Of a stretch of 64,000 nucleotides of DNA, positions 7,577 to 28,556 are shown piece after piece. The position numbers were made by a program, and so were the translations under genes. This DNA comes from a virus: positions 1 through 64,000 of the IMG/VR virus record IMGVR_UViG_3300046804_003617. The stretch is one strand, 5' to 3'. The notes beneath the pieces were generated by a model, which was not told the DNA's origin, ran no database searches, and saw nothing but the letters and a program-made list of their open reading frames with translations. Positions within the stretch are counted from its first letter, which is position 1. Each line of letters starts with the position of its first letter.

Positions 7577-7601
7577 AGTCTATATATATGAGCGGTTACT
7601 A

Positions 7602-7613
7602 TATAAATATATA
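7602..7613 (-). promoter_or_regulatory. Late-type motif upstream of portal
   Basis: TATATATTTATA. Confidence 0.7.
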
Positions 7614-7637
7614 CCTCTGTTATTTTTATAAAATATA

Positions 7638-9679: not shown

Positions 9680-11797
9680 TTATACTATTTTGTCTATCAT
9701 TTTTATAACGTCGCCCGAACTTATCTGCTTGGTGCACTCGAAATCTTTGCCTCTGGGACACCAGTTCCAGTTTCCTTTGTCAAATGTGTGACTGACATCG
9801 TTCCAACATCCGTGGCATACATTCTTGTTTATTACTCTGTAGTCTGTATTGAATTCGGCAAACTCTTCGCTGAAGCCGCTGATAAGTATTACCTTTTGTC
9901 CAGCAGCCCAAGATAGCCAACTTAGTCCAGAACCAAGTCCAATGAAAAACTCAGCACCTTTTATCTGCGAAAGCCTTTCTTCCAGATGTAGATCTCCGGT
10001 TTTATCGATGGCTCCTTCTGGAATATAGTTCATCTTGTCCTTGCCTCCATATGAACTATGTCTGTCTATGCACCATACTTCATATCCTTTTTTGTTTAGA
10101 TAGTTTATGACTTCTTTCCATCCATCTGGGTTATTCCAATATTTTGCCTGCGCTGTGCTTTGGGTTGCTATGCAAACATATTTCTTGTCGTGCTTGACCG
10201 GAACAATTTCCAATTTTGGCTTATATTCAACAAGTGGCAGTCCAAGTATGTTTGGTGCAATCAATGCGAGAGAAGTTTTCTTTGGATCAACCGGTATGTT
10301 TCCGTTCCAATTGTTCTGGTCGAAATATCCGATGGAATATGCGGCATAATAGTTGTCATCGCTGTCGTTTGTTCTGGAGAATTTTATATCTTTGTAGTTC
10401 TTGGAGAATATTTCCAGAAATTGATCGTTGTATACCACGCAAGTGAGATCGCAGCCGTGAATTTGCCTGAACTTTTCAGCGGAACCAATATACGCCAATA
10501 TGTCTCCCATACTGTTGGTGTCAAATATCAGTTTTACCTTTTTGTTTTTTAGGTCAAAAGTGTGTGACTCCACCAAAATTTCCTCATTATCATTCATCTC
10601 ATATACCTCAACCACCCAATTTCTGAAATATCTTGGGATAGAAGAACTCCACATATTGTTTGTTATTGTGGTTTCATATGTGACGGTATTAACATCCGTG
10701 TCTGTGAATTTTATTTTGTATTTTTTGCTCACTGGACCAAGTATTTCAACCTTGGGTCCGGATGGAAACCATATCTTGATGTTGTTTTTTACTTCTTTGT
10801 GCGTCTTTTCGCAATTGATATAGTGGTTTATGATTCTGTTGGCAAATATGGTTTCACGATATTCGCTGTATATCTTCACCAAATCGTATACTCGTGAATC
10901 ATATGAGTTCTCGGCGGCGTTTTCCAACGCATCCTTTCTGAATTGATCGTAGTTTTGATCCACCAAACTGATAGCCGCTTCTGCTTCGGTGATGTCTCGT
11001 TTGCAAACAGCCATCCCCTTATATGAGGATTCTTCAAATGTTCCAATGACCGGCAGTCCGCAAGCCATAGCTTCCAGCAATGTAAGATTTGGGTGACCGG
11101 CTTCAAGTTCCGACAAATGAACAAATGCGTCGTGCTCATTATACAGATGGACCAGCCACTTTTCATCCAAATCATACAGCTTGGTCAGATTGGAATAGTT
11201 GTTCAATTTTGGATCAAGCGTCTTGAAGAAATTATTGTTGTTGCTTGGTCCGGCGATTGTGATCTGCATATCAAGATTCATCGCCGCTTGTATCGCAAGA
11301 CCAAATCCTTTTCTGTCAACGCTCTGGTTGTATGCATAACCATTGTTGGCCACACACAACAGTTTCAATTTTTTGTGTCTTACACGTTCGTTACATTTAA
11401 ATACGCTCGTGTTGACCGCGTGGCTGAAATAACGAAGTTTCTTGCTGCCGAAATATGGAATAAGATATTTGCACGGAGAAAGAGAAATTACGCTATTTTC
11501 AATCGCTTGTAGATTTTGCTTGAATAAATCAGAGTCTTTTCCATACAAATAGGCATGATGATCGTGAATGGTGAATATATAAGGTATTCCTCGTTCGTGA
11601 CACATATTCGCCAAATTGGCAACGTGAACGTGAACGATCATACTATCATCATACTTTATATCATTAAGATACAATATCTCGTTGTTGACCCCGATATTTT
11701 CCAGCGACAAATGATAATCCCAGATGATTTTTTCAACGGCACCCCATCCATTCGGTGGAATGGCGATTAGACCTGGAGTTACATTGATTACTTTCAT
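9680..11797 (-). CDS. GT4 glycosyltransferase fused to an Aah/TibC-type (autotransporter) protein O-heptosyltransferase
   Basis: N-terminal GT4 (GWGAVEK, EAGHPNLTLLEAMACGLPVI). C-terminal SMGD, STAQAKYWNNPDGW, FIGLGSGLSWLSWA, VILISGFS and the four-Cys CHGCWN..WCP..FECT motif. Confidence 0.85.
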   Translation of the reverse strand: MKVINVTPGLIAIPPNGWGAVEKIIWDYHLSLENIGVNNEILYLNDIKYDDSMIVHVHVANLANMCHERGIPYIFTIHDHHAYLYGKDSDLFKQNLQAIENSVISLSPCKYLIPYFGSKKLRYFSHAVNTSVFKCNERVRHKKLKLLCVANNGYAYNQSVDRKGFGLAIQAAMNLDMQITIAGPSNNNNFFKTLDPKLNNYSNLTKLYDLDEKWLVHLYNEHDAFVHLSELEAGHPNLTLLEAMACGLPVIGTFEESSYKGMAVCKRDITEAEAAISLVDQNYDQFRKDALENAAENSYDSRVYDLVKIYSEYRETIFANRIINHYINCEKTHKEVKNNIKIWFPSGPKVEILGPVSKKYKIKFTDTDVNTVTYETTITNNMWSSSIPRYFRNWVVEVYEMNDNEEILVESHTFDLKNKKVKLIFDTNSMGDILAYIGSAEKFRQIHGCDLTCVVYNDQFLEIFSKNYKDIKFSRTNDSDDNYYAAYSIGYFDQNNWNGNIPVDPKKTSLALIAPNILGLPLVEYKPKLEIVPVKHDKKYVCIATQSTAQAKYWNNPDGWKEVINYLNKKGYEVWCIDRHSSYGGKDKMNYIPEGAIDKTGDLHLEERLSQIKGAEFFIGLGSGLSWLSWAAGQKVILISGFSEEFAEFNTDYRVINKNVCHGCWNDVSHTFDKGNWNWCPRGKDFECTKQISSGDVIKMIDKIV

Positions 11798-12630
11798 GCC
11801 TTGCCTCCGACATCCAACAAATAATTCATTGTCTGATATGCCAGCTTTCTGTCCTTGAAGCCGTGATACATTATTATTTGTGTAGAGTCATATACATATT
11901 CCCAGTCCGCGCCTAACGAATCTATATTCATTCCGATGCGCTGATCCTTGATGACTTCTGTTTCCACCTTCTTGACCAGTTCCGGGTTGTGAGTATTCAG
12001 GAATGCATATCCAAGATTCTGCGTGGCGTTTCTCTTGAACAAGCATACATTGAACCCTGTTTCATCTTGGAATGGAAAATATACCTTCTTTCTTGGTATG
12101 AGGTATTCGTTCTTGCACATCGAAGTATATTCTTCGAAGAAGTCTCTGCAATTGCGATTGAATGAATATATACAAGACCATACATATCTCATGGTGCGTT
12201 GTGGCACACCAAAGTATTTCATCAATGCGCTTTCGTCGTATACGATTCTATTGCCATCTATGACTTCATAAATAAAAGGATATTCGTGTGGTCCCATACT
12301 CGCCAACGGATATGAATGTGTATGCTCTATGGCGGCAGGATTGAACCGACGAGAATACAGCACATCCGTGTCAGTGAACATAAAATGCTGTTCGTCTGGG
12401 AACATATCCATAGTAAGAAGCGATAGTTCCGCCTTATAGAAATGAAAACTGGGATAAGACGGAATAGGTGCCAAGCGCACTTTCTTTACCTTGTTAAACT
12501 CATATACCGAATCAAACCCGATGGTATAGTATACTATGCGGTCATTTTCGCGCAGCCTTGGCAACAAGGTCTGTATGCAGGAAAACGCCTGATATTCGCA
12601 GTTCTTGTCTGTGTATAAAAATATGATCAT
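11794..12630 (-). CDS. Putative GT-A glycosyltransferase
   Basis: FMFTDTDVL (DxD), FQDE and C-terminal YHG; translationally coupled within the GT cluster. Confidence 0.6.
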   Translation of the reverse strand: MIIFLYTDKNCEYQAFSCIQTLLPRLRENDRIVYYTIGFDSVYEFNKVKKVRLAPIPSYPSFHFYKAELSLLTMDMFPDEQHFMFTDTDVLYSRRFNPAAIEHTHSYPLASMGPHEYPFIYEVIDGNRIVYDESALMKYFGVPQRTMRYVWSCIYSFNRNCRDFFEEYTSMCKNEYLIPRKKVYFPFQDETGFNVCLFKRNATQNLGYAFLNTHNPELVKKVETEVIKDQRIGMNIDSLGADWEYVYDSTQIIMYHGFKDRKLAYQTMNYLLDVGGKA

Positions 12631-14612
12631 AACTTTGTGGCAAATATTGATTCGCTGGATCCGGCATATTCTTCCACCGGCTTGTTGATAGCTTCTTCCA
12701 CCTTGTATCCCATAGACTCGACACGTTCGATGAGCTTGCGATACTTTTCCTTATAATCTTTTTCAAAGAAATGGCATTCTATGAACATGGTGTCTATATG
12801 CTCCGCCAATGCGGGGTCCATATTCTCGATGACATTATATTCCGATCCTTCAACGTCTATTTTAAGCAGATTGATGTGCTTCAGTCTATCAACCAGATCC
12901 TTTATGGTGATGGTTTCCACGATTGTCTTTTGACTTGGAAGCAATCCAGCACGATGCTGTGCTATATTTTCTGGTGGTATGGCGCTGCTGATGATTGAAT
13001 TCTCTGGGCAATTATAAAACGTGATTGGCTCATTATTATGACTCAGCGCCTTGTCTATCACTGTCACATTGTCGTTGAATTCATAATTGCGTCTTAAATC
13101 GGCCACGGCTTCGGCGTTGCATTCCACGGAAGTGATCTTTCTTGAAATCTTGCTGCGAATCAAGAATTCTGTGAATACTCCGATATTTGCACCAATATCC
13201 ACGGCAACCGGATATTTGGTATTTTTATTCAGCCATTTGGCGTATTTTCCAAGCACAAAATATTCCGAATAATTATACCAGTAAGGTGCACGATTGCTCA
13301 GTGATATGGTCGGAACATTCACAAATTTTCTGAAGAATGGTTCCTCATACAATTGTTCTTGTGTATCTTTTTTATACACGCAAAACTTTATACCGGCAAC
13401 GTGCTCATCTTTTTCATAGTCTCTGGTCTGCTTTGCGATTGGGATCATCCAATAATAGCAGTTGGCTGGAAAAGATGGATATTCCGTTGACCATAGTATG
13501 GCGTCGGACTTGTATTCTCGCAATGCCACGATGATAGGGAAATCAACCCCACGACCAGAACTATATGTCATTTTTTGCTCGTTGATGTCCCAAGTCGCCT
13601 GAAACAGATAATCGTTGTGCAATATGGTATGAGGTGTAGAAGATTTTGTTTCCATTTGTTTTATTCCTAATTTATTTAAAATTTTGTTTATATTGGCATC
13701 TTTTGATCCGAAATCAAGATATTCTATGTTTTCGTATTTGTCATACATTCCGAGATATACTGGAAGGTTGTATATCAATGATGGTATATTATATGATATG
13801 GCTTCTCGGATTACAAGCGGACTTGTTTCCTTGTCGTGCACGGTTCCACGCGATGTGAAAAGGAATAGATCCGCTGCTTGATAAAAATTCTCGACATCTT
13901 TTCTTTCATCCCACCATTTACAATTGCTTGGGAAGTTTTTCATTATAGGTTGCCAATAATCCCTGAAATTGTCCGCTTGGTTTCCCACGAAATGAAATTG
14001 TATCGGCTGTCCAAGCAAGCTTCTGGCATATTCCACTATTTCCAATTGGTTCTTGCGTGGAGTAAATAGCCCGACGTTAATCACGTGCTTCAGCTTTGGA
14101 TCCAATCCCAACACCTTCAACGCCTCTTCACGTGGCTTGCGTGGATTTATCACGATTGGATATTCATATACATCCATCGGAATATCCAAAGATTTCAACG
14201 ACTCCAATTGATATCTGCTTACGAACAGTATCTTGTCGGGAAAGAACACTTTGTTTTTTGGATCAAAGCTGCTGTCGTGGGATGTTTCGATGAGTTTGTA
14301 TGGACGATCCTTGCGATATAGTTTCTTGGCAATTTCGCCGTCCATAAAATATTCCGGCATTTCTTCAAGATGCACCACTTCCGGATTTATCTTTTCTATA
14401 TGGTCGAGTAGCTTTGGTCTGTCGTAATTCACAGATATGAATCTGTCTTTCAACAGTTCAATTATCTGGTTCTTTTGGATGGTGAATCTGCCGTGGTCTG
14501 CGTATTCTATGCAATATACTTCGTGTTCTTTGTTCAACACTTGTATCTTCTTCAATAGAAACTGTGGACACCCACCTGTAGAAAGATGGGGAGCAATATA
14601 AAGAATACGCAT
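12627..14612 (-). CDS. GT4 glycosyltransferase fused to an FkbM-family methyltransferase
   Basis: N-terminal HLSTGGCPQ, VGLFTPRKNQ, ETSPLVIREAI; C-terminal VDIGANIGVF and LKIDVEGSE. Confidence 0.85.
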   Translation of the reverse strand: MRILYIAPHLSTGGCPQFLLKKIQVLNKEHEVYCIEYADHGRFTIQKNQIIELLKDRFISVNYDRPKLLDHIEKINPEVVHLEEMPEYFMDGEIAKKLYRKDRPYKLIETSHDSSFDPKNKVFFPDKILFVSRYQLESLKSLDIPMDVYEYPIVINPRKPREEALKVLGLDPKLKHVINVGLFTPRKNQLEIVEYARSLLGQPIQFHFVGNQADNFRDYWQPIMKNFPSNCKWWDERKDVENFYQAADLFLFTSRGTVHDKETSPLVIREAISYNIPSLIYNLPVYLGMYDKYENIEYLDFGSKDANINKILNKLGIKQMETKSSTPHTILHNDYLFQATWDINEQKMTYSSGRGVDFPIIVALREYKSDAILWSTEYPSFPANCYYWMIPIAKQTRDYEKDEHVAGIKFCVYKKDTQEQLYEEPFFRKFVNVPTISLSNRAPYWYNYSEYFVLGKYAKWLNKNTKYPVAVDIGANIGVFTEFLIRSKISRKITSVECNAEAVADLRRNYEFNDNVTVIDKALSHNNEPITFYNCPENSIISSAIPPENIAQHRAGLLPSQKTIVETITIKDLVDRLKHINLLKIDVEGSEYNVIENMDPALAEHIDTMFIECHFFEKDYKEKYRKLIERVESMGYKVEEAINKPVEEYAGSSESIFATKL

Positions 14613-14642
14613 AACCTTATATTAAAACATTTACGCCACTCG

Positions 14643-15284
14643 TCAATCTTTTTTATTCAATACTTTGCTGATTTCCGCGTTGACTTTCTTTAATTCTTTT
14701 TCAGCTGCCTTGATTTTCTTCAAGCAAGTTACCCAGTCCTTCTGAACATGTTCTTTCAATTCTCCGCGAGCTTCATTGCTCCATTCTTCGACCATACCGG
14801 TTGAATTTGCCCAAGTCATCGTCTTTGATTCTTCGCTTTCCAGATAGTCTTTGCTTTCTCTGAGCTTTTGCTTGATATCGCCCAGATATGCTAATTCGTT
14901 TTCAAGAAGCTTCTTTGTTTCATACAGCTTGAATTGACCCTTGGCTCTCAGATCAGTCTCTTCATTTGAAATGCAATCCAAGCATTTCTTGGTACGATAA
15001 AACATCTTGCGGTCCTGCTTTGTTCCCCAACGTATTTCTCTACCGCAGCACTCACACTTATCGTTGACTTCTTCACGTATGATATCCATAACACGAGTGA
15101 CTGCTTGTGGACCACTCGCGGTCTGCACCCAATTCTTTCCGCTGGCATCTGTCCAAGTTTCGCCTTCTTTGCGAATAATATACTTGTCCTTGTCCCCAGT
15201 ATATCCCACTTGGATGAATGGCCGTTCTCCAGCCAGATAACCTTTTACAATATCAATGTTGCTTTTACCTTGTGCTCTCTTCAT
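14643..15284 (-). CDS. Hypothetical protein with putative Zn site and coiled coil
   Basis: CECC...CLDC; 213 aa. Confidence 0.65.
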   Translation of the reverse strand: MKRAQGKSNIDIVKGYLAGERPFIQVGYTGDKDKYIIRKEGETWTDASGKNWVQTASGPQAVTRVMDIIREEVNDKCECCGREIRWGTKQDRKMFYRTKKCLDCISNEETDLRAKGQFKLYETKKLLENELAYLGDIKQKLRESKDYLESEESKTMTWANSTGMVEEWSNEARGELKEHVQKDWVTCLKKIKAAEKELKKVNAEISKVLNKKD

Positions 15285-15316
15285 AGTGTATAACCTTTGT
15301 TGGTTATATATATGAC

Positions 15317-18211
15317 TCAGTCGGCAGTTTCTGCTCCGGACTTTATTCTTTTATCTATAAAAAGACGCAAAAGATACACGATATATGCCTCACCGGCATA
15401 TTTGTTGGTAAGAACAGCCTGAGTGACATTATTCAGCTTTTGCTGCAAGAAAGCCAGCTGACTCTCCGTCTTTGCTGTGCTGTCTGGATCAACTTCTCCG
15501 CTGGCTTTGATCTCGTTCCACTTTGCCTGTATTTCCTTAAGTTCCTTTTGTGCGGATGCCAATACTTCATTTGCGCGAGTTCTTACTGCTTCGGGTGAAG
15601 CATCAATTCCTTGTGCTTTCAATGAATTATATACTTCGAGTGTAACTTTGTTTGCGGAAGCATCGTCTGTGACATCTCCCACCTTTGCTTTTGCGGCGGC
15701 GATGGTTTTATTAAGTGTGGCGGCGTGAGCGGTTGTCATACCAAGAACCTTGGTAAGAAATGCACCATCAAGAACCTTTTCAGCATTTCCAACTGCCTTA
15801 CGAGTTCCCCAAGTCTTTTCAGCAATCTTGTGAAATATTTCAGAAGTGCCCTTGATAAAAACAGGCTCATCGGGAAGATTGATTTTCAACACAACGCCTT
15901 CAACTGGATATTTACGAGAAGCGTCTGAACTTAGGAACGTATTGATGCGTTCGGCATACTTGTTGAGCACTCCTTGCATCTGATCCTTGACCTTGCGGAT
16001 GATCTTTTTTAAAGCGTCCTTCTCGGGACTTTCTTTGCGAGTTTTCAACAATGCTGCTGCTTGTGATAGTTTGGCTGGGTCGCCAACGAGCTTTTGAATT
16101 CCGGAAAGATTAAATACCAATCCTTCTCTGCTCAGTGATCCGTGCTTGCTGATATTGTACACTTTCCATTCTGGATCACTTGTGCTTTCAACCATATCCA
16201 ATATTTCTTCGGACGATTCTTCTCCGTGCTTTTCACAGGTTGCTCCAAAGCACACAAACGCTCCCCTGTTTCCAAGTTTGGATTTGTTGTATTTGGTGGA
16301 AGCAAACACGATATCACCAAGCTCATCGCCCTTATGGGTCAATACAGGAAACATTTCAGATGTGATCTTGAATGCGCCGTGTTTCTTTTTTATTGCCTGC
16401 AACTTTGTTTGCAATGGCTTGTATCCGTTCAGGAACTTCAGTGCCTCATAGAAATGAACGGTGAATGGATTATTCAGCTTTTCCGCGTTGGATATGGTTA
16501 CTTCTCCGCTGTTGGCGGATTCTACAAAGAATTGACCAGACGCATTCAATCCCCATTTGCAGGGAGAGCCATCAAGTTTTTCAGTGACTGATGCATTATT
16601 GGCTACGCTCAGATCCATTTTACCCTGTTTTACCAGTGGCTGGATACGGCGTAGAAAGTCCAAGAATTCAGCGTCGGTCATTTCATTTGCACCTGAGAAA
16701 CGCTGGATGGAAAGTTTGTTTGCTTCTTCAAGCCTTGGATGTAGCAGATCCGGCTCCGCCGCTTGGCTCTTTGCCATATTTTCCTTATATGCGTCGATGA
16801 TCTCTTTTCTGAATTGCGGGAACTTGAAATCCTTGGACTTGAACAAAGCATACACTTTTTCAAATGTATCAATGTCCGCGAATGTCTTGTCTTCACCAAA
16901 CAGGAACTTTGCCACAAAATCCATATCCGTGGACTTTAGCTCTCTGCTAACTTCCTTGCGCTTGCCCTTGGCATCAACCGTGAACTTTTGCAGGAAGAAT
17001 CCTTCTGCCGGTGAAAGCATATATTTCTGCTTCAAACCATTTGGTCCAGCGTCTTCAATGATCTTGGAAAGTATTTCAGATATCAGCAGGTTTCTGAATT
17101 TTGCCTTGTATTGACTTTCGGGGGCACCGGAATAAAACTTTTCTCTCCAGCTTCTCACACCAAGCATAACATCAACCTGCACATATGGCTCTTTGTTTGG
17201 ATCTTCACTGCCGTCCTTGTTTACAAATGGCTGGTTGACAGCCTTTCCAAGCAAATGAAACTGAAACAGTCCTTTTGCCGGTTTTCCTGCCGGAAACTTC
17301 TTTGATAATGCATCAAACAGAGCATCCTTGTCAGCCGTAGGAGGCAGCTTCAAGAACTTAAGCATATCTTTTGTATCAACTGCGATGTCTATATCTCCCA
17401 GCAATGGCTTGCTGAAGTTTCCTATTTTGGAGTATTGGATCTTGCCGAGACCATTGTCTTTCAGTACTTGTGTTATTGTTGGGTCAAGGTTTTCACGCCT
17501 CACCGCAGAGACTTCGACATCAAACATTTCTCCACCTTCTTTGAGCTTCTTCTTGGCTGGTTTTTCCGGTGGAACATATCCGGCGGCTTCCTTGAATTTA
17601 TCAGAGAGCAGCTTTGCTATCTTAGGATCATACCAACCGAAGATCTTATCAAATGTTTCCTTGCTTGGATTTGACGCGATCATACCACGGATTTCGGTTC
17701 CGCTAAGTTCCTTGCCGTCAACTTTAAGGGAAAAATGTGGAATAACAATCAGATATCCGTGCTTTGTGAAATCTTCAAGGTTGTTCTTGTTCTTTTCATA
17801 AAACTGTAAGTATGCTGGAGAACCATCTTTCTTTACGCCGCCAACGTTGAATCTTTCAGCGTCTTTCTTTCCGAATCCAAATACTATGGCGGAGTTTTCG
17901 GGAAGCATATCCAATACTTCCGTTGCAATATATGGGTTCTTCACTTGAACAATCTTGTCAGCGGGAACTCCATACTTTACCCACACTGCTTTCTTTTCAG
18001 CAAAGCTTAATGGGCTATCTGGCAATTCTACCTTATCGGATGTGACAACGAAAGTTTTATCTACACCAAACTTGTCGGCCAAATACTTGTATGCCTGATA
18101 ATGGTGCGGTCCTGCTGGATGGAAACGGCCAGGATAGATGGCGTATACTTGATTGCTGTTTACGATTTCGTTATATAACTGTTCAATGATTTGCTCGGTA
18201 AGTTTGTCCAT
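15317..18211 (-). CDS. Three-domain protein: HIGH-type cytidylyltransferase-like + Pol-beta-type nucleotidyltransferase + ATP-dependent (RNA) ligase-like
   Basis: YPGRFHPAGPHH and SGTEIR; GDIDIAVD...VQVD; TEKLDG...EMF...EGVVLK...FIK. Confidence 0.65.
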   Translation of the reverse strand: MDKLTEQIIEQLYNEIVNSNQVYAIYPGRFHPAGPHHYQAYKYLADKFGVDKTFVVTSDKVELPDSPLSFAEKKAVWVKYGVPADKIVQVKNPYIATEVLDMLPENSAIVFGFGKKDAERFNVGGVKKDGSPAYLQFYEKNKNNLEDFTKHGYLIVIPHFSLKVDGKELSGTEIRGMIASNPSKETFDKIFGWYDPKIAKLLSDKFKEAAGYVPPEKPAKKKLKEGGEMFDVEVSAVRRENLDPTITQVLKDNGLGKIQYSKIGNFSKPLLGDIDIAVDTKDMLKFLKLPPTADKDALFDALSKKFPAGKPAKGLFQFHLLGKAVNQPFVNKDGSEDPNKEPYVQVDVMLGVRSWREKFYSGAPESQYKAKFRNLLISEILSKIIEDAGPNGLKQKYMLSPAEGFFLQKFTVDAKGKRKEVSRELKSTDMDFVAKFLFGEDKTFADIDTFEKVYALFKSKDFKFPQFRKEIIDAYKENMAKSQAAEPDLLHPRLEEANKLSIQRFSGANEMTDAEFLDFLRRIQPLVKQGKMDLSVANNASVTEKLDGSPCKWGLNASGQFFVESANSGEVTISNAEKLNNPFTVHFYEALKFLNGYKPLQTKLQAIKKKHGAFKITSEMFPVLTHKGDELGDIVFASTKYNKSKLGNRGAFVCFGATCEKHGEESSEEILDMVESTSDPEWKVYNISKHGSLSREGLVFNLSGIQKLVGDPAKLSQAAALLKTRKESPEKDALKKIIRKVKDQMQGVLNKYAERINTFLSSDASRKYPVEGVVLKINLPDEPVFIKGTSEIFHKIAEKTWGTRKAVGNAEKVLDGAFLTKVLGMTTAHAATLNKTIAAAKAKVGDVTDDASANKVTLEVYNSLKAQGIDASPEAVRTRANEVLASAQKELKEIQAKWNEIKASGEVDPDSTAKTESQLAFLQQKLNNVTQAVLTNKYAGEAYIVYLLRLFIDKRIKSGAETAD

Positions 18212-18216
18212 ATTCT

Positions 18217-18228
18217 TATAAATATATA
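18217..18228 (-). promoter_or_regulatory. Late-type motif upstream of the 964-aa tri-domain gene
   Basis: TATATATTTATA 5 nt before ATG. Confidence 0.7.
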
Positions 18229-18253
18229 CAAAACTCGCATTATAGACGAGTTT

Positions 18254-20307: not shown

Positions 20308-20318
20308 ATAACCTTTTT

Positions 20319-20347
20319 ATTAGATACTAAATCGATTGTTTTGTCAA
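20319..20347 (-). promoter_or_regulatory. Sigma70-like promoter for the GT8 operon
   Basis: TTGACA-17 nt-TCTAAT. Confidence 0.45.
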
Positions 20348-20356
20348 ATTAAAACT

Positions 20357-20611
20357 TTAAGCGTAGTTGATATTCACAAATATATACCTCAAGTCGGTAT
20401 TTCCACCACCATTCCAGCTACCAGCAATGAGCTTTGTGTCAAAACTTATTTCCTGCGCTGGAGAATATTGAATTTTTTCATATAGCTGCGCCAAGTCTGT
20501 ACCATTGCTCTTAAAGCCAGTGTTTGCCGTAGCAGAGGACGTTCTCGGCTTAAATATACTATCCAAATCTGTGTCTACTCCACTTATTCTAACTTTGAAT
20601 CCGGATGCCAT
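20357..20611 (-). CDS. Small tail-fibre-associated protein, paralog 2
   Basis: 84 aa; shares KSNGTDLAQLYEKIQYSPAQEI and DLRYIFVNINYA with 20643..20879. Confidence 0.75.
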   Translation of the reverse strand: MASGFKVRISGVDTDLDSIFKPRTSSATANTGFKSNGTDLAQLYEKIQYSPAQEISFDTKLIAGSWNGGGNTDLRYIFVNINYA

Positions 20612-20642
20612 ATATGTTTAAATATTAAACCATTATTAGTTT

Positions 20643-20879
20643 TTAAGCGTAGTTGATATTTACGAATATATATCTGAGATCCACGCCTCCGGTTTTGAAC
20701 CCCGTATTGAAATTTATCTCTTGTGCTGGAGAATATTGAATTTTTTCATATAACTGTGCCAAGTCTGTGCCATTGCTTTTTATTCCGACATTTGCTCGCG
20801 CCGCACTGGTTCTTGCTTTAAACACGCTGTCCAAGTCGGTGGGCGTTCCGTTTATTTTTACTGTATAATTGGAAGCCAT
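20643..20879 (-). CDS. Small tail-fibre-associated protein, paralog 1
   Basis: 78 aa; starts 3 nt after the tail fibre stop. Confidence 0.75.
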   Translation of the reverse strand: MASNYTVKINGTPTDLDSVFKARTSAARANVGIKSNGTDLAQLYEKIQYSPAQEINFNTGFKTGGVDLRYIFVNINYA

Positions 20880-20882
20880 ACA

Positions 20883-23800
20883 TTATTTATTCTTCAGCTC
20901 CAATAATTGCGATTTGACTTCTTTTAATTCTGCTGATAGTTCTTTTACTGCGGCAATAAGTGCGGCGGTTAATTTACCATATTCCAATCCAGAAATATTA
21001 CCATCTTTGTCTTTGTTGACGATTGTTGGTATCAGTTCATTTACTTCTTCTGCGATCATGCCTATGTCGTTGGTTACATCCTTATTTTTCCAATCGAATG
21101 TGACTGGACGCAACTTTTGTATCATATCCATACCATTTGTCAAATCTTTAATATTTGTCTTGAATCTTCTGGATGATGTGCTGTTAAATGATACTGCGGT
21201 AACTGCTCCGCTTGAATCAAGAACAATGTTTCCTCCACCAACTCCCACTGTTCCGCTGAATGATCCTCCACCGGTACAATCAAATCCTCCGGTTCCTACT
21301 TCCGCTCTTCCGCAAACAATAGTGGAGGCTCCTCCACCAAACTGGAATTTGCTACTTGCATATTTGAATTCTGCACCAGCAAGTGTAAGTACTCCTAGAT
21401 CATTTAGTTTTGTAGAATACCCAGATCCAAGTTGAATAGAGGCGGCGGCACCTCCTCCGGTCAATAGAAGAGGATACGAACCGGTCAATCCAATCGTTGC
21501 TTGGTTTGTTGATGCATCGATACTCAACCCATTTCCTGTTATCTTTGCTGCGGAATTTGTTGCGCTCGATAATCCCCCCGCTCCTATGTTCCATCCGGCA
21601 ATAGTTCCTGAATTTGTCGCGGTCAACGACGTTGCCGTGACAGTTCCCGATATTGTTGCTGATGTGGCGGTCAATGCGCCTCCAGAAGTGACTTGGAATG
21701 TTCCGCTGTTTATATTCAATGTTCCACCAGTTATGGAAACATCCGCACAGCTTATGTTTCCGTTACTATTCAACGTCGTAGAACCGGCAGTCAATGTTGT
21801 GGACCCAATGGTCCATCCACCAATACTGCCGCCGCTATTGGCGTTTAAGGTAGAAACCGTCAGAGTACCATTACTGTTTAGTGTGGTAGAGCCGCCGGTC
21901 AAGCTGCTTGCGCCTATGGTCCATCCACCAATACTACCACCACTGCTTGCGTTTAATGTTGAAACTGTAAGCGTTCCGTTGCTATTTAGAGTCGTGGAAC
22001 CGCCCGTCAACGTACTTGCACCAATAGTCCACCCACCGATACTACCAGCACCGGCGGTAACGGTGCCACTTACAGTAGCAGATGACAAATTCGCCGAAGT
22101 CGCAGTCAATATTCCAGACGGACTTACACTGAAATTCGTAGAACCTGTGATAGAACCATTACTATTTAATGTCAATGCGCCTCCAGTTATGGTACTACTT
22201 CCAATAGTCCATCCACCAATAGTACCGCTTGTTGAAGTTATCTTTCCGGAAATATCCGCCGCACTCGCGGTTACACGGCCATTTGAATCAACTCTAAACG
22301 CCCCGCTTCCTATATTTAATGTACCACCAGTGATAGTACCTCCGCTTATGGTTGGAGAATTTATTGTGAGTGCAGCGTTTATTGTTCCGGCATTGATCTT
22401 GTTTGCATCCAAATTGCGAATATATGCCTGATCCATATACACTCCACTAATGTCAACGAGGAATGGAGTAATAACACTTCCTTCATCTCCCAGAGTATTC
22501 ACAACCTTAAACGTATCCGCTTGTATTATAAATGAAGAGGACGCGACGCTCGATGCTATTTTATATCCAGCAACTCTGTTTCCGGCTGTGACTGCCAGTA
22601 CATACTGGGCTTTCAAACTTACTACAGAACCGGATACCGCCGCTGATGTGGTCTGTGTCGTTGATATACTTGCGCTTAAATTTGATCCACTTATATTAAG
22701 TGCGCTTGTCAAGTTGTTGATGCTAGTTGCGGCTGACGAACTGTTGTTCGTGACTGTGTTGCTGAGACTATTAATGTTTGATTGTAAAGTAGAGCCGCTC
22801 GTATTAAGAGCGCTCGTCAAGTTGTTGATGCTGGTCGCGGCTGAAGCACTATTTGTGGTAAGAGTACTGTTTGTCGTGGTAATGCTCGAAGCCAGAGACG
22901 AACTGTTTGTGGTGATCGAACTACCCAGGCTGTCCATGCGGGTCGCCGCAGACGAACTGTTCGTGGTGACCGTGGTGCTCAGGCTATTGATGTTCCCCTG
23001 CAAGGTCGAACCGCTTGTGTTGAGGGCGCTCGTCAAGTTGTTGATGCTGGTCGCGGCTGAAGCACTATTTGTTGTGATAGTACTGTTTGTCGTGGTGATA
23101 CTTGATGCCAACGACGAGCTATTTGTCGTGATTGAACTACTTAAACTGTCCATTCTAGTAGCCGCAGACGAACTGTTATTTGTGACAGTGTTATTAACAG
23201 TGTTTATATTGGACTGCAACGTTGACCCGCTGGTATTAAGAGCACTGGTCAAGTTATTGATGCTGGTCGCCGCTGAGGCACTATTCGTGGTAACGGTGCT
23301 ATTCGTTGTTGTTATGCTGGAGGCTAGAGAAGAACTGTTTGTTGTAATTGAACTACTCAGACTATCCATACGAGTAGCAGCCGAAGAACTGTTGTTTGTG
23401 ACAGTTGTGCTCAGACTATTGATGTTCGATTGTAATGTCGAACCACTTGTATTCAACGCGCTTGTTAAATTATTTATGCTGGTCGCAGCAGATGCGCTGT
23501 TTGTCGTGAGAGTGCTATTAGTTGTTGTGATACTGGATGCCAACGAAGAACTGTTTGTGGTGATCGAACTGCTCAGAGTATCCATCCGAGTAGCTGCGCT
23601 TGAACTGTTATTCGTGACCGTGGTACTTAGACTATTAATATTCGATTGCAATGTCGAACCACTGGTATTCAACGCACTCGTCAGATTATTGATACTGGTT
23701 GCTGCGGACGAACTGTTCGTCGTCACGGTACTATTTGTCGTTGTGATGCTGGATGCGAGTGAAGCGCTATTTGTAGTAATAGAACTATTCAAGCTGTCCA

Positions 23801-26800
23801 TTCTTGTGGCTGCTGAAGAGCTATTATTCGTGACGGTTGTACTTAAGCTGTTAATATTTGACTGAAGAGTCGAACCACTGGTATTCAGCGCACTTGTTAG
23901 ATTATTCAAGCTCGTAGCAGCAGATGCGCTATTTGTGGTAACAGTACTATTCGTCGTTGTTATGCTGCTTGCCAAAGAAGCGCTGTTGTTTGTAATTGAA
24001 CTGCTTAAGCTATCTATACGAGTTGCCGCTGAGGCGCTATTGTTTGTAACTGTAGTACTGAGAGTATTGATGTTGGACTGCAACGTAGAGCCGCTTGTGT
24101 TCAATGCGCTCGTAAGATTGGTTATACTGGTTGCGGCAGAAGCACTGTTGGTTGTAACCGTGCTGTTTGTTGTCGTGATACTAGAAGCCAGCGAAGCACT
24201 GTTGGTTGTGATGGAACTTCCGAGGCTATCCATACGTGTGGCGGCGGATGAACTGTTTGTCGTGACCGTTGTGCTTAACGTATTAATATTCGACTGAAGA
24301 GTTGAACCACTAGTATTTAGAGCACTGGTTAGGTTATTGATGCTTGTTGCTGCCGATGAGCTATTTGTTGTAACCGTGCTGTTTGTTGTCGTGATGCTGG
24401 ACGCAAGAGAAGCACTATTGTTGGTAATAGAGCTGTTCAACGTGTCCATCCTTGTAGCCGCAGACGAACTGTTATTTGTGACGGTCGTGCTAAGAGTATT
24501 AATATTTGACTGTAAACTTGAACCACTTGTATTCAACGCACTGGTTAGGTTATTAATACTTGTTGCTGCCGATGAACTATTGGTCGTTATTGTGCTGTTT
24601 GTGGTGGTAATACTACTTGCCAAGGATGCACTGTTCGTTGTAATCGAACTGCTGAGACTATCCATTCTGGTCGCAGCAGATGAACTGTTATTAGTTACAG
24701 TGTTGCTCAGTGAAGTGATGTTTGATTGCAACGTAGACCCGCTGGTATTCAAAGCACTTGTGAGATTGTTTATACTTGTTGCAGCAGATGAACTGTTTGT
24801 TGTAACCGTACTGTTTGTTGTTGTGATGCTTGACGCCAGCGATGAACTATTGGTTGTGATTGCGCTGTTCAAACTGTCCATACGAGTTGCGGCGGAAGAA
24901 CTGTTTGATGTGACCGTGTTGCTTAACGATGTAATATTTGACTGCAACGTTGAACCGCTTGTGTTTAAAGCGCTTGTGAGATTGTTGATACTTGTGGCAG
25001 CGGACGAACTGTTTGTCGTTACCGTGTTCTGAACCGATGTGATATTCGACTGTAATGTGGAGCCACTGGTATTAAGAGCACTCGTTAGATTATTTATTGA
25101 TGTTGCCGCTGATGAGCTATTCGTTGTAACTGTATTGTTTACTGTTGTGATACTTGAAGCCAGCGACGAACTGTTATTGGTGATTGAACTATTTAAAGTG
25201 TCCATCCGCGTTGCTGCCGATGAACTGTTGCTGGTTACCGTATTGCTTAGTGAGGTGATATTTGATTGTAATGTGGATCCACTTGTATTCAACGCACTTG
25301 TCAGATTATTGATGCTGGTCGCGGCGGATGAGCTATTTGTGGTAACCGTGCTATTTGTGCTGGTAATGCTGCTTGCCAACGACGCGCTATTGTTAGTAAT
25401 AGAACTTGATAGAGTATCAATCTTTGTTGCCGCAGATGAACTGTTTGTAGTTACAGTGTTACTTAAAGATGTTATGTTTGACTGTAGTGTAGATCCACTT
25501 TGATTCAGTGCGCTGGTCAAGTTGTTTATACTTGTGGCTGCGGATGAACTGTTTGTCGTGATGGTGCTATTTGTGCTGGTAATACTCGATGCCAAAGAAG
25601 AACTGTTGTTCGTGATGGAACTATTAAGCGTATCCATACGTGTTGCAGCAGATGAACTGTTTGTGGTAACAGTATTGCTCAACGATGTAATATTGCTTTG
25701 TAGAGTAGATCCACTGGTATTTAGTGCAGCCGTTAAATTATTAATGCTTGTTGCCGCCGAAGCACTGTTTGTTGTTATCGTGCTCTGGGTTGATGTGATC
25801 GAAGCATTTAGCGAGGCGGAGGCGTTGGTATAAGAAGAACTCAGAGTCGTCAACTGTAGTGCGAGGGACGAGCTTGCGGTTGTCAACGAACTTCTCACAT
25901 CGGTGATAGATGCCGCCAATGATGCGCTGTCCAATGAACTGGATTGACCAGCCGATATAGAATCAATTCTTCCGGCAAATGACGAGGATGTATTGGTAAA
26001 TGTGGTATTCGCCGTTGTTATAGATGCCGCCAATGAAGCACTGTTGTTTGTTATAGAACTGGACAGCGTGTCGATCTTTGTTGCGGCAGACGAACTGTTG
26101 TTGGTGACAGTTGTGCTCAGAGTATTGATGTTGGACTGCAACGTAGATCCACTGGTGTTCAGCGCCGATGTCAAATTATTGATACTCACCGCAGCAGAAG
26201 AACTATTCGTTGTTATGGTTGACTGCGTGCTTGTGATAGAAGAGGCGAGAGAAGCACTTGCGTTAGTAATGTTGGTGGATACAGTGTCAACTCTACCGGC
26301 CAGAGATGAACTGGCTGTGGTCAAGGTATTGTTTGTTGTTGTAATGCTTGCCGCAAGAGAAGAACTGTTGGTTGTTATAGAACTGCTGAGTCCATCCATT
26401 CTCGTTGCTGCGGATGAGCTATTGGTTGTCACCGTTCCTTGCAACGTCGTCAGTGAACTTGCGAGAGAAGAACTGTTTGTTGTAACATTTGAAGAAATGG
26501 TATCAACTTTGGAAGCGAGTGATGAACTTGCATTTGTCAATGTTGTATTTACTGACGAAATTGATGAAGCAAGTGAAGCGCTGTTACTGGTAACTGTACT
26601 TGACAGGTTGTTTACTGCCGTGGCAGCAGATGCGCTGTTTGTAGTAACGGTGGATTGTGTGCTGGTGATGGAAGCGGCAAGAGAAGAACTTGCATCAGTA
26701 AATCCGGATGATATACTATCAACCTTAGCAGCAAGAGAAGAACTTGTATTGGTTAAAGTAGTGCTTGTGCTAGTTATTGATGCGGCAAGTGACGAGCTAT

Positions 26801-28556
26801 TAGTATTAATGCTGCTTTGCAATCCATCCATTCTCAATGCTGCGGATGAACTATTTGTAGTAACTGTTGTGCTTAACGATCCTATATTTGATGAAAGCGA
26901 AGAAGATGCGTCTAAGTAAGACGAACTTAATGTAGTCAGCTTTGCCGCTAAAGATGAGCTTGTGGTTGCCAGCGTGTTGTTTACTTGGGTTATGGAAGCA
27001 GCGAGAGAAGCACTGTCCAGTGATCCTGTTCCACCAGCCATTGCAGCAATAACATCTATTCTATTGGCAAATGACGAGGATGTATTGGTAAATGTCGTGT
27101 TTGTGGTGGTGATACTTGCAGCCAATGATGCGCTGTTGTTTGTGATCGCACTTGACAGTGTATCTATTTTTTGTGCGGCGCTGGAACTGTTTGTTGTTAT
27201 TGTTCCCTGAACAGAAGTTATTGTGGACGCAAGAGATGAGCTATTAGTTGTGACCGTACTGGACAGAGTATCCATTCTTGTAGCCGCCGACGAACTGTTT
27301 GTTGTCACAGTGCTACTTAACGTATTGATATTTGACTGTAAACTTGAACCACTTGTATTTAAAGCACTTGTCAAATTGTTTATACTTACTGCTGCCGAAG
27401 AACTGTTGGTGGTGATTGTTCCGTTGGTGGTGGTGATGCTGGAAGCCAATGATGCACTGTTTGTGGTTACTGTGCTGCTAACCGTATCTATTTTGGCAGC
27501 AAACGAGGAAGAGTCGGTGGTCACTGTTGCATATACACTTTGTATGGATGATGCCAGTGAAGCGGAATCTTGGGTGACTCTGTTGCTCACGCTGCTTAAG
27601 CTTGAAGAAAATGATGCCGAATTTAAAGTTATTGCCGAAGCAAGAGAAGCGGAAGCATCGGTAACAGAAGAACGTATTGAAGTAGAAACAGATGCGGCGG
27701 ACGCAGAGTTTGCGTTTATGCTTGCATACGCAGCGGAAATATTGCTATTGATGGACTGCGATACAATATACAAAGAAGAAGAAACCGTCTGTATGCTGGC
27801 GGATATTGCAGCTATGCTGCTGGAAGTTGATGATACAAGAGAAGAGGAAACTGAATTTATTGTGCTATACAAAGATGCGGTGGCAGAATTCAAGTTTTCA
27901 AATACCTGAGAAACGGATGCCGAGTTCTGAGTCACCGCCGATGCCAAAGATGAAGATGCGGTGTTTATTGCCGAATAAACTGCTACCAAACTTTGGGTTA
28001 TTGATTGATCTATGGAAGCGGACGTAGATGCTAAAATTTGCGGGACTATATCTTGAATACTCTGGGATACTATACTTGAAATTGAAGAAGAGATTACAGT
28101 GTTTACATCTCCCAGACTTTGTGATATTTGATTATTAAGGGATTGTGATACTGCATTTAATTGTGAAATACTAACCGAAGATGTTGGTAGTCCAATAACG
28201 GCCCCAGCACCATATTGTATACTTAATGTGCCGTCATCTTGGTCGGTGAGTCTTATATTTCCAACGTAAATACTACCAGAACTTACATACAAGTCTTTCC
28301 ATCTGTTTGAGGGACTGCCCAGATCATATATAGCATCTGTTATAGGAACCAAACTTTGGGATATTTGAGACCCATCAAATGTTCCTCCCGTGGTATATGC
28401 CAAACTGTTCCAAGCAGTAGCTCCATTGCCTATCTTCAATTTTCCAGTATCGGTCTCGAATCCAGCTTCACCACTCGAAAGTGTCGGGTTTACAAACGAC
28501 CAGTTTGCTGCCGTGTCTCTTCTTAGCTGTATTTTTTGGATTGCGATGGTTGACAT
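20883..28556 (-). CDS. Giant tail fibre (Mtd_N-like N-terminus, Ser/Thr/Asn coiled-coil stalk, DUF1983-like region, Gly-rich repeats, S74 intramolecular chaperone)
   Basis: IQLRRDTAANW..NPTL..GE.GFETDTGKLKIGNG; 18-aa repeats; AGYKIA..FIIQADTF..PF; IGGWTIG repeats; SSRRFKTNI...LRPVTFDWK...GMIAEEV...YGKL. Confidence 0.9.
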   Translation of the reverse strand: MSTIAIQKIQLRRDTAANWSFVNPTLSSGEAGFETDTGKLKIGNGATAWNSLAYTTGGTFDGSQISQSLVPITDAIYDLGSPSNRWKDLYVSSGSIYVGNIRLTDQDDGTLSIQYGAGAVIGLPTSSVSISQLNAVSQSLNNQISQSLGDVNTVISSSISSIVSQSIQDIVPQILASTSASIDQSITQSLVAVYSAINTASSSLASAVTQNSASVSQVFENLNSATASLYSTINSVSSSLVSSTSSSIAAISASIQTVSSSLYIVSQSINSNISAAYASINANSASAASVSTSIRSSVTDASASLASAITLNSASFSSSLSSVSNRVTQDSASLASSIQSVYATVTTDSSSFAAKIDTVSSTVTTNSASLASSITTTNGTITTNSSSAAVSINNLTSALNTSGSSLQSNINTLSSTVTTNSSSAATRMDTLSSTVTTNSSSLASTITSVQGTITTNSSSAAQKIDTLSSAITNNSASLAASITTTNTTFTNTSSSFANRIDVIAAMAGGTGSLDSASLAASITQVNNTLATTSSSLAAKLTTLSSSYLDASSSLSSNIGSLSTTVTTNSSSAALRMDGLQSSINTNSSSLAASITSTSTTLTNTSSSLAAKVDSISSGFTDASSSLAASITSTQSTVTTNSASAATAVNNLSSTVTSNSASLASSISSVNTTLTNASSSLASKVDTISSNVTTNSSSLASSLTTLQGTVTTNSSSAATRMDGLSSSITTNSSSLAASITTTNNTLTTASSSLAGRVDTVSTNITNASASLASSITSTQSTITTNSSSAAVSINNLTSALNTSGSTLQSNINTLSTTVTNNSSSAATKIDTLSSSITNNSASLAASITTANTTFTNTSSSFAGRIDSISAGQSSSLDSASLAASITDVRSSLTTASSSLALQLTTLSSSYTNASASLNASITSTQSTITTNSASAATSINNLTAALNTSGSTLQSNITSLSNTVTTNSSSAATRMDTLNSSITNNSSSLASSITSTNSTITTNSSSAATSINNLTSALNQSGSTLQSNITSLSNTVTTNSSSAATKIDTLSSSITNNSASLASSITSTNSTVTTNSSSAATSINNLTSALNTSGSTLQSNITSLSNTVTSNSSSAATRMDTLNSSITNNSSSLASSITTVNNTVTTNSSSAATSINNLTSALNTSGSTLQSNITSVQNTVTTNSSSAATSINNLTSALNTSGSTLQSNITSLSNTVTSNSSSAATRMDSLNSAITTNSSSLASSITTTNSTVTTNSSSAATSINNLTSALNTSGSTLQSNITSLSNTVTNNSSSAATRMDSLSSSITTNSASLASSITTTNSTITTNSSSAATSINNLTSALNTSGSSLQSNINTLSTTVTNNSSSAATRMDTLNSSITNNSASLASSITTTNSTVTTNSSSAATSINNLTSALNTSGSTLQSNINTLSTTVTTNSSSAATRMDSLGSSITTNSASLASSITTTNSTVTTNSASAATSITNLTSALNTSGSTLQSNINTLSTTVTNNSASAATRIDSLSSSITNNSASLASSITTTNSTVTTNSASAATSLNNLTSALNTSGSTLQSNINSLSTTVTNNSSSAATRMDSLNSSITTNSASLASSITTTNSTVTTNSSSAATSINNLTSALNTSGSTLQSNINSLSTTVTNNSSSAATRMDTLSSSITTNSSSLASSITTTNSTLTTNSASAATSINNLTSALNTSGSTLQSNINSLSTTVTNNSSSAATRMDSLSSSITTNSSSLASSITTTNSTVTTNSASAATSINNLTSALNTSGSTLQSNINTVNNTVTNNSSSAATRMDSLSSSITTNSSSLASSITTTNSTITTNSASAATSINNLTSALNTSGSTLQGNINSLSTTVTTNSSSAATRMDSLGSSITTNSSSLASSITTTNSTLTTNSASAATSINNLTSALNTSGSTLQSNINSLSNTVTNNSSSAATSINNLTSALNISGSNLSASISTTQTTSAAVSGSVVSLKAQYVLAVTAGNRVAGYKIASSVASSSFIIQADTFKVVNTLGDEGSVITPFLVDISGVYMDQAYIRNLDANKINAGTINAALTINSPTISGGTITGGTLNIGSGAFRVDSNGRVTASAADISGKITSTSGTIGGWTIGSSTITGGALTLNSNGSITGSTNFSVSPSGILTATSANLSSATVSGTVTAGAGSIGGWTIGASTLTGGSTTLNSNGTLTVSTLNASSGGSIGGWTIGASSLTGGSTTLNSNGTLTVSTLNANSGGSIGGWTIGSTTLTAGSTTLNSNGNISCADVSITGGTLNINSGTFQVTSGGALTATSATISGTVTATSLTATNSGTIAGWNIGAGGLSSATNSAAKITGNGLSIDASTNQATIGLTGSYPLLLTGGGAAASIQLGSGYSTKLNDLGVLTLAGAEFKYASSKFQFGGGASTIVCGRAEVGTGGFDCTGGGSFSGTVGVGGGNIVLDSSGAVTAVSFNSTSSRRFKTNIKDLTNGMDMIQKLRPVTFDWKNKDVTNDIGMIAEEVNELIPTIVNKDKDGNISGLEYGKLTAALIAAVKELSAELKEVKSQLLELKNK
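22650..27900 (-). repeat. 18-aa (54-bp) coding repeat organised into a 72-aa (216-bp) higher-order unit
   Basis: Unit TTNSSSAATSINNLTSAL / NTSGSTLQSNINSLSTTV / TNNSSSAATRMDSLSSSI / TTNSSSLASSITTTNSTV; most regular about 22700-26300. Boundaries approximate. Confidence 0.9.

Follow-up and report, generated by a model that had tools for sequence, protein, structure and literature searches.

The stretch of DNA analysed here, called the window below, is the first 64,000 nucleotides (64 kb) of the IMG/VR virus record IMGVR_UViG_3300046804_003617, which is 76,167 bases long and rated about 36% complete; the remainder of the record was read as locus L062. All long open reading frames (ORFs) of the window lie on the minus strand, among them a cluster of glycosyltransferase (GT) genes whose lead member encodes a protein of 705 amino acids (aa) with a domain of the TibC/Aah type. 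The cluster is flanked by genes for the terminase TerL (PF03237) and a T4-type portal (PF07230, E 2e-69), found with Pfam at 5705-9287. The closest protein relatives of the portal belong to Microcystis phage Mel-JY01 and to Flavobacterium 'immuto' phages (52-53% identity); megablast of the portal and TerL against phage records gave no match, such that relatives are seen at the protein level only, and a tRNA scan of the sequence returned zero tRNAs. The phage is uncultured and looks T4-like and lytic. We checked the gene positions proposed in a first-pass annotation of the sequence, and all of them were found in place on the minus strand. The two genes on which the argument turns are the following:

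9680..11797 (-): 705-aa fusion of a GT4 domain and a TibC/Aah-type (BAHT) domain, recognised with Pfam, NCBIfam, a PDB sequence match and AlphaFold2 (AF2)/Foldseek
20883..28556 (-): 2557-aa tail fibre, candidate glycan acceptor, recognised by Mtd_N, S74 and a repeat core

The 705-aa protein divides into a GT4 domain (about residues 1-320, nt 10838-11797) and a TibC-like domain (residues 334-705, nt 9683-10798). Pfam places PF00534 (GT4) at residues 160-253 with E 1.2e-9 and PF01075 (GT9) at residues 536-639. The NCBIfam model TIGR04414 hepto_Aah_TibC, which describes autotransporter strand-loop-strand O-heptosyltransferases, matches residues 334-704 with 358.1 bits against a cut-off of 200 and is covered nearly end to end (positions 6-374 of 374); a six-frame search of the record gave 360 bits. 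The models for lipopolysaccharide (LPS) heptosyltransferases, in contrast, stayed far under their cut-offs (TIGR02193, heptosyltransferase I, 18.5 vs 185.3 bits; NF008204, 16.4 vs 437). The sole strong sequence match in the PDB was TibC (4rb4/4rap, E 7e-74), with residues 350-704 aligned to TibC 32-386. An AF2 model of the domain (predicted local distance difference test, pLDDT, 86; predicted template-modelling score, pTM, 0.87) was superposed by Foldseek on TibC 4rap/4rb4 with a template-modelling score (TM) of 0.84-0.85 and E 9e-39 over about 375 columns, whereas the LPS enzymes WaaC and WaaF reached TM 0.45-0.51. Since the LPS models are unmatched and the TM is far higher to TibC, we consider the C-terminal domain, on this profile and fold evidence, to be a genuine member of the TibC/Aah family and not an LPS-GT9-type enzyme; the family assignment made in the first-pass annotation is thus upheld by both the profile search and the structure overlay.

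In TibC, the catalytic base is Asp110, Thr226 and Lys230 contact the beta-phosphate of the donor, Arg286 the adenine N1 and Trp305 the heptose O4; Cys339, Cys342, Cys358 and Cys370 make the iron finger, Phe265 and Val266 the tip of the thumb, and the ring-shaped dodecamer is formed by thumb-mediated Phe265/Val266 contacts together with iron-finger dimerisation (PMC4358343). In our alignment, TibC D110, T226, K230, R286 and W305 correspond to D432, T548, K552, R608 and W627 of the 705-aa protein, every one of them kept. The Asp of its SMGD motif (D432) aligns with D110, and the Cys of CHGC..WCP..FEC (C661, C664, C680 and C688) align with the iron-finger Cys339/342/358/370 as a putative Fe site; both the TibC-like GD catalytic position and the four-Cys site proposed from the letters alone are therefore borne out by the alignment. 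Pro300 of TibC is replaced by G622, and by Ser in Aah. The domain is predicted from the model to share the architecture of the TibC protomer, namely an N-terminal beta-barrel, an atypical GT-B core, a thumb formed by a beta-hairpin, and the inserted iron finger.

A pattern-limited scan of IMG/VR found the TibC-like domain in 57 viral loci, at 32-68% identity; ORFs were called and neighbours clustered, and the comparisons below use 47 non-redundant viral and 52 non-redundant cellular domains. A large protein database gave 2123 matches at E <= 1e-10, viral and cellular unsorted, many of them with FkbM, FtsJ or GT4 domains, and searching 185,579 species genomes with the profile brought up over 550 cellular relatives, spread over Burkholderiaceae, Negativicutes, Lentisphaerae, Alphaproteobacteria and Enterobacterales. 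Among deposited phages the domain occurs in the cultured Microcystis phage Mel-JY01 and in three 'huge phage' assemblies. In Mel-JY01, a 1226-aa TibC-like fusion lies near an 805-aa open frame with a Gly-Ser/Thr-Ser collagen-like tract; this frame is an ORF call of the present analysis, and the record annotates other genes over the stretch.

In an unrooted tree the 47 viral and 52 cellular domains are parted by a single branch (Shimodaira-Hasegawa-like approximate likelihood ratio test, SH-aLRT, 100), and the viral domains are not nested inside the cellular BAHT radiation. The window enzyme belongs to a subclade of five viral members, with those of L005, L006, L010 and L187. Fused enzymes of at least 550 aa make up 39/47 of the viral set versus 2/52 of the cellular one: the viral architectures include GT4-TibC, GT4-TibC-FkbM, GT2-GT4-TibC-FkbM and GT4-GT2-TibC, whereas the cellular enzymes stand alone at 390-470 aa, often as tandem pairs. 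The parts fused in relatives (GT4, TibC-like and FkbM) are divided over two genes in the window. Residues were compared in an alignment of the 47 viral and 52 cellular domains (loci L002-L061, L187-L199 and L319-L398). Both clades are near-invariant at the catalytic Asp, at Lys230 and Trp305 and at the iron-finger Cys, of which all four are present in 46/47 viral and 52/52 cellular enzymes. Arg286, the adenine contact, is kept in all 52 cellular enzymes versus nine of the 47 viral ones, the window's whole subclade included; Val, Thr, Leu or Ile takes its place in the other 38, and much of the viral clade may, from this substitution, use a different nucleotide sugar.

We then come to the neighbours of these enzymes. 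In 26/47 non-redundant viral loci a Ser/Thr-rich fibre-like ORF of at least 400 aa lies no more than 10 kb from the enzyme gene, with a median gap of about 1.5 kb. The fibre-like neighbours carry proline-free (Gly-Ser/Thr-Ser/Thr/Asn)n tracts of hundreds to about 2000 residues, and several carry S74 chaperones. In the reverse test, records were chosen only by a DNA pattern for (GTSGSS)x4; TIGR04414 was present in 13/47 of them and in 0/49 random viral records of similar total length, unmatched for phage lineage or habitat (Fisher p = 3.5e-5). When the chosen records were restricted to those at least 80% complete, the proportion was 4/6. In 7 of the 13 positive records the repeat protein lay within about 10 kb of the enzyme gene. 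The presence of the viral TibC-like clade tracks hyper-Ser/Thr fibre genes, and the co-occurrence that the first-pass annotation had put forward for testing is thus positive in both directions. As for the cellular homologues, an AIDA-type/Autotransporter neighbour, with the enzyme upstream, was found in 6/7 of those tested, so that in the branch with known function the nearby gene points to the substrate; no autotransporter was found in the window or in the viral loci.

The 2557-aa ORF, described at first as a giant Ser-rich tail fibre beside the cluster, fits that description: it has Mtd_N at residues 9-47 and a Peptidase_S74 intramolecular chaperone at residues 2461-2513, and because of these two ends its predicted product is taken as a genuine fibre. 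Its Ser+Thr content is 42%, the next in the 76 kb being at most 22%, such that it is the sole hyper-Ser/Thr protein of the record. In the core (residues 131-1990, 1860 residues) Ser accounts for 29%, Thr for 20%, Asn for 12% and Ala for 11%; charged residues make up 3.5%, and Pro occurs once. Hydrophobicity recurs with a period of 3.6 residues, and the DNA repeats every 216 bases, equal to 72 aa. The core is followed at about residues 1991-2460 by a Gly-rich beta-type repeat region. When AF2 was run on a 301-residue piece of the fibre, the best of five models was a single helix (pLDDT 80) and the other four were poor. We read the core as an uncharged, hydroxyl-coated alpha-helical coiled coil, with a predicted length of about 280 nm. 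No Gly-X-Y tract was found anywhere in the 76-kb record, and the fibre is not collagen-like. A complex prediction of the TibC-like domain with fibre residues 2085-2330, from the beta-type repeats, scored 0.00 in a run without controls and counts neither way. Over the fibre repeats only (22000-28000) the GC skew turns to +0.07 to +0.23, which is a by-product of the minus-strand repeats rich in Ser, Thr and Asn codons and not a replication signal.

This fibre type was found in one other viral contig, L399, in conserved synteny; that contig breaks off short of where GT genes would come, and its lack of a TIGR04414 match counts neither way. The sister phage G042, whose TerL and portal are 86% and 83% identical to those of the window, keeps both the GT4-TibC and the GT4-FkbM gene. 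The other genes and features around the two described so far are:

11794..12630 (-): 278-aa virus-specific module, GT8-like by its Atlas neighbours; gene ends overlap both neighbour genes
12627..14612 (-): 661-aa fusion of GT4 and an FkbM-family methyltransferase (Pfam, NCBIfam)
14643..15284 (-): 213-aa conserved protein with a Cys cluster and a charged C-terminal tail, near TerL in relatives too
15317..18211 (-): 964-aa protein with a nucleotidyltransferase-like N-terminus and a ligase-like C-terminal half (KxDG at 545, EGVVLK at 771)
18230..18254 (-): terminator-like hairpin of 9 pairs with a T-rich tail, between the GT2-like and 964-aa genes
18254..19138 (-): GT2-like (GT-A fold) protein of about 294 aa (Atlas)
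19135..20307 (-): 390-aa GT8-family glycosyltransferase (PF01501, 25.4 bits, barely over the cut-off of 24.3)
20357..20879 (-): pair of small paralogues (84 and 78 aa), the next ORFs downstream of the fibre gene
28587..30674 (-): conserved protein of 695 aa, the next gene upstream of the fibre, with a late-type motif before it

The 661-aa protein matches PF00534 (E 7.7e-11), PF05050 (E 1.4e-17, 64.8 bits with a cut-off of 22.7) and TIGR01444 (83.9 bits with a cut-off of 37.7). The start of the 278-aa gene overlaps the stop of the gene upstream, and its own stop overlaps the start of the gene downstream. In the Atlas it falls into a virus-only family; its fold recurs inside viral multidomain proteins with GT9 or GT4-FkbM and gives a weak GT8 signal, GT8 being found in 20-27% of the members of the neighbouring clusters; a segment homologous to it sits inside the TibC fusions of L023 and L030. 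The GT2-like gene was called as a 340-aa ORF, the longest frame, reaching to 19276; its likely start is at residue 47 (nt 19138), overlapping the stop codon of the GT8 gene, and from that residue on it lies beside GT2 families in the Atlas (feature score 0.96, TM 0.50-0.55). Neither the 278-aa nor the 340-aa ORF had a match in Pfam, PHROG or NCBIfam, and both are probable GT-A enzymes, with weaker evidence than for the other GTs. The claim of five GT genes between terminase and fibre thus stands firmly for GT4-TibC, GT4-FkbM and GT8, and less so for the two GT-A calls, which come from the Atlas. Two ORFs within the cluster are unrelated to glycans. The 213-aa ORF was considered as a GT, which was left unsupported since no family of Pfam, PHROG or NCBIfam matches it. 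The 964-aa protein was considered as an ADP-heptose synthase and rejected: it has no PDB relative, and its ligase motifs (KxDG and EGxVxK) point to a nucleotidyltransferase/ligase fusion, which may be an RNA or DNA end-repair enzyme that interrupts the GT cluster. Its nucleotidyltransferase-like N-terminal domain recurs widely among proteins of aquatic phages that are 550-1550 aa long. The 84-aa and 78-aa tandem paralogues have long identical stretches in common and lack a family match. Homologues of the 695-aa protein precede the same fibre type in L399 and GT4-FkbM in G042. Among the 17 cluster proteins zero transmembrane-like segments were found and all look soluble, which argues against a phage-encoded lipid-linked polysaccharide assembly or export.

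As regards transcription, the octamer TATAAATA occurs in 14 copies in the window versus 4.4 expected, 13/14 of them on the strand opposite the genes (+). On the coding (minus) strand it takes the form ATA-TATTTATA, reverse-complementary to the T4 late-promoter octamer TATAAATA, and is placed 12-33 nt upstream of 10 genes of that strand. The genes it precedes include the portal, baseplate-region genes, the 695-aa gene (at -29) and the 964-aa gene, and it stands at -62 of the fibre gene; it was not found before the sbcCD, primase and Hsp70 genes. The motif scan placed it as follows:

2345, 5670, 7602, 18217, 28611, 30696, 35740, 38992, 47073, 49947, 59659 (+ strand coordinates; coding strand -): ATA-TATTTATA sites

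Because of the motif positions and the hairpin, the region is likely to be read as two units, as judged from the DNA. The first would run from the 695-aa gene through the fibre, the two small paralogues and GT8 to the GT2-like gene, ending at the terminator-like hairpin, and the second from the 964-aa gene through the 213-aa, GT4-FkbM, 278-aa, GT4-TibC and 156-aa genes to TerL; both carry the motif of the virion genes. In sigma-70 promoter and terminator scans, the promoter and terminator-like sites of the region were not above chance.

A second locus with glycan genes begins at the end of the window:

63031..64000 (-; record 63031-64728): C-terminal half of a 565-aa HtrL/YibB-family protein, last gene of the second locus

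The gene reported earlier as a GT at 63031 is present, and it is the C-terminal half of an HtrL/YibB-family ORF that runs past the window end. Beyond it (record 64729-71933, equal to L062 730-7933) lie three ORFs of 816, 105 and 265 aa with short (PT)n tracts and, downstream of them, a GT60-like PF11397 protein (434 aa), a 224-aa ORF and an O-carbamoyltransferase (533 aa), all co-directional with the HtrL/YibB gene that closes the locus. The PF11397 match, to a family of polypeptide GlcNAc-transferases, reaches 253 bits with a threshold of 21 (ORF L062 2999-4303, record 66999-68303), and in other phages, too, genes for PF11397 and HtrL/YibB proteins are found near those of TibC-like enzymes. 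From its gene content the second locus is a candidate protein-glycosylation locus, and because the GT60-like protein adjoins the (PT)n proteins, protein glycosylation looks like a recurring trait of this phage.

Elsewhere in the window, a single 1068-aa ORF at 30708-33914 (-) joins an Mre11-like phosphoesterase to a Rad50/SMC-like ATPase, functions that T4 keeps separate as gp47 and gp46. A 1077-aa protein with FG-GAP repeats and a dockerin-like segment is encoded at 35753-38986 (-), and at 59773-62143 (-) a full-length Hsp70/DnaK-like chaperone (635 aa, PF00012, 863 bits) adjoins an Hsp20/alpha-crystallin protein (150 aa).

Taking these observations together, we lean modestly towards reading the cluster as a protein O-glycosylation system which the phage encodes and which would work in the cytoplasm on a protein of the virion, with the 2557-aa fibre as the likeliest acceptor. 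Late in infection the TibC-like domain would put the first sugar, possibly heptose from host ADP-heptose, on Ser/Thr hydroxyls of the fibre. Extension of the glycan would then fall to the GT4 domains of the 705-aa and 661-aa proteins and to the 278-aa GT8-like module, and possibly to the GT8 and GT2-like proteins encoded next to the fibre, with O-methylation by FkbM; a rod of about 280 nm sheathed in glycan would result. The proposal of virion glycosylation that we started from therefore holds for the identity of the enzyme, for the further GTs with the FkbM methyltransferase and for the family-level link to Ser/Thr-rich fibres, and is kept as a conjecture for the acceptor, for heptose and for the order of priming, extension and methyl-capping. 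An ADP-linked donor appears more plausible here than for most viral members, because the adenine-reading Arg is kept (R608, and in the whole subclade).

Several points weigh against this proposal. With regard to the enzyme, the thumb-tip F265/V266, needed for the TibC dodecamer, are D587/K588 in the 705-aa protein, a position that varies within the viral and cellular clades alike. With regard to the donor, the models for ADP-heptose synthesis genes (SIS_2, PF01467 and PfkB) found no match in the 76-kb record, itself a fragment, and such genes were rare, too, in 13 large records of phages with the enzyme, which gave three sub-threshold small nucleotidyltransferases and one GmhA-like SIS protein; phages do not generally supply the donor, which would come from the host. 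Strict adjacency of enzyme and fibre was observed five times versus 4.3 expected by random placement in the 10-kb flank, such that the association holds at the 10-kb and whole-record scale and not at that of immediate neighbours, and the control of the reverse test is, as said, unmatched for lineage and habitat. The window is moreover the weakest case of the family: it combines a non-collagen fibre, a 9-kb gap and a record about 36% complete. Its 9086 bp between fibre and enzyme gene are the largest gap of the 26 loci, Gly-X-Y tracts are present in 25/25 of the other fibre-like neighbours and absent from this one, and the predicted alpha-helical fibre is unlike the beta-helix of TibA. G042, finally, has an unrelated, collagen-like fibre of 3410 aa (45% Ser+Thr) elsewhere in its genome. 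Because G042 keeps the enzymes with an unrelated fibre and the record is so incomplete, another acceptor may be encoded in the unsequenced two-thirds of the genome; either the enzymes accept Ser/Thr-coated rods of differing folds, or the acceptor lies there.

This leads to the competitor that survives best, which we regard as rather doubtful: the virion is glycosylated on some other structural protein, be it a Gly-Ser/Thr-Ser collagen-like fibre in the missing ~64% of the genome or proteins of the tail/baseplate region. The Gly-X-Y tracts present in all the other fibre-like proteins encoded near viral TibC-like genes and the fibre of G042, a phage so close by its TerL, speak for the former, but the available 76 kb hold no such tract, and the 2557-aa fibre presents about 900 Ser/Thr hydroxyls in the same co-directional run of genes. 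For the latter, the tripeptide [S/T]-[G/A/S]-S occurs beyond composition in three unrelated ORFs of the tail/baseplate region, at 35753-38986 (26 vs 4.8 expected, z 9.6), 40817-45496 (16 vs 4.4, z 5.5) and 45711-47054 (13 vs 3.0, z 5.9), all (-), and is only mildly enriched in the fibre (z 2.7); the enrichment is absent from non-structural proteins. The tripeptide could be a modification site or a plain structural repeat, and its enrichment possibly reflects mere structural repeats such as FG-GAP repeats.

We find it unlikely that the enzymes instead remodel the host envelope (LPS/O-antigen, capsule or a surface protein such as an autotransporter adhesin) against superinfection or for adsorption. 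GT4, GT8 and GT2 are families typically met in LPS and polysaccharide synthesis, the cellular BAHTs have bacterial adhesins as their acceptors, and the GTs and rfaE of pelagimyophage fibre regions have been read as O-chain modification (PMC7029224). The TibC family is, however, protein-specific, and the models of LPS heptosyltransferases are unmatched; the cluster proteins include no membrane-spanning partner, flippase, polymerase or ligase. Moreover, the presence of the enzyme tracks phage fibre genes and not the host type, the gene blocks bear a motif common to virion genes, and the lytic T4-like look of the phage leaves little time for surface conversion. It is most improbable that the GTs modify phage DNA after the manner of T4 hydroxymethylcytosine glucosylation: DNA glucosylation is best known from T4-like phages and the cluster of this T4-like phage adjoins packaging genes, but searches of Pfam, PHROGs and NCBIfam assigned none of the GTs to a family of DNA glucosyltransferases, and the lead enzyme falls in a protein O-glycosyltransferase family with an acceptor-binding beta-barrel and an iron finger.

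Returning to glycosylation of the phage's own fibre, a wider version of it can be proposed only tentatively, as a possible rather than a probable account. A virus-specific branch of the TibC/Aah family may have been retargeted from beta-helix adhesins to phage fibres and may recognise long hydroxyl-coated rods of any fold, in most phages Gly-Ser/Thr-Ser triple helices free of proline and in the window an uncharged alpha-helical coiled coil of about 1860 residues, and the GT/methyltransferase fusions would build a methylated glycan sheath. With a second, GT60-based mucin-type system acting on Pro-Thr linkers, there would be two separate protein O-glycosylation systems in one bacteriophage.

If fibre glycosylation is true of this large viral clade, many aquatic large phages would carry glycan-coated fibres, and the usual annotation of GTs in fibre hypervariable regions as host LPS modifiers would have to be revised. 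Such coats could have a bearing on how hosts are recognised, on how well the phage withstands proteases and grazing, on its sticking to mucus or particles and on its antigenicity, and the multi-domain fusions could serve as compact enzymes for glyco-engineering. The cultured Microcystis phage Mel-JY01 offers a direct test system.

To our knowledge, experimental proof of virion protein glycosylation in bacteriophages is confined to mycobacteriophages, and the one role known for TibC/Aah enzymes is the modification of virulence adhesins of Proteobacteria; our literature searches found no published report of a phage TibC/BAHT enzyme. Capsid and tail-tube subunits of mycobacteriophages are reportedly glycosylated by phage-encoded GTs. 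As in the window, GT genes are there found next to genes for structural proteins, and decoration of the phage's own virion by their products has been proposed or shown. The mycobacteriophages differ in being siphoviruses of Actinobacteria with, as far as annotations go, different GT families, whereas the case of the window is read from its genes. We know of no TibC-type enzyme, multi-domain GT fusion or giant Ser/Thr fibre described in mycobacteriophages.

With the TibC-TibA and Aah-AIDA-I pairs of E. coli (BAHT; 4RAP/4RB4; PMC4358343) the window enzyme has in common the fold, the catalytic and donor residues and the four Cys; both are soluble and cytoplasmic, and encoded near a long, repetitive, hydroxyl-rich, rod-like protein. 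However, the viral enzymes form a separate clade, and that of the window is fused to GT4 and differs at the thumb tip and at position 300 (Gly). The neighbour is a phage fibre, alpha-helical here by prediction and collagen-like in most relatives, instead of an autotransporter beta-helix passenger, and the adenine-contacting Arg is lost in most viral members (kept in 9/47), such that the donor may differ across the clade. WaaC and WaaF share with the enzyme the distant GT9 GT-B superfamily, and TibC has their ADP-heptose donor chemistry, but they are built without beta-barrel, thumb and iron finger. Closest in setting are the fibre hypervariable regions of pelagimyophages and cyanomyophages, in which GTs (GT8 the commonest) and sometimes rfaE lie among the tail-fibre genes of aquatic T4-like phages, together with collagen-repeat and Mtd-domain fibre proteins, and in which the GTs are read as host O-antigen modification (PMC7029224). 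TibC-type enzymes are not reported in that paper, and the present data favour the phage's own fibres as the target.

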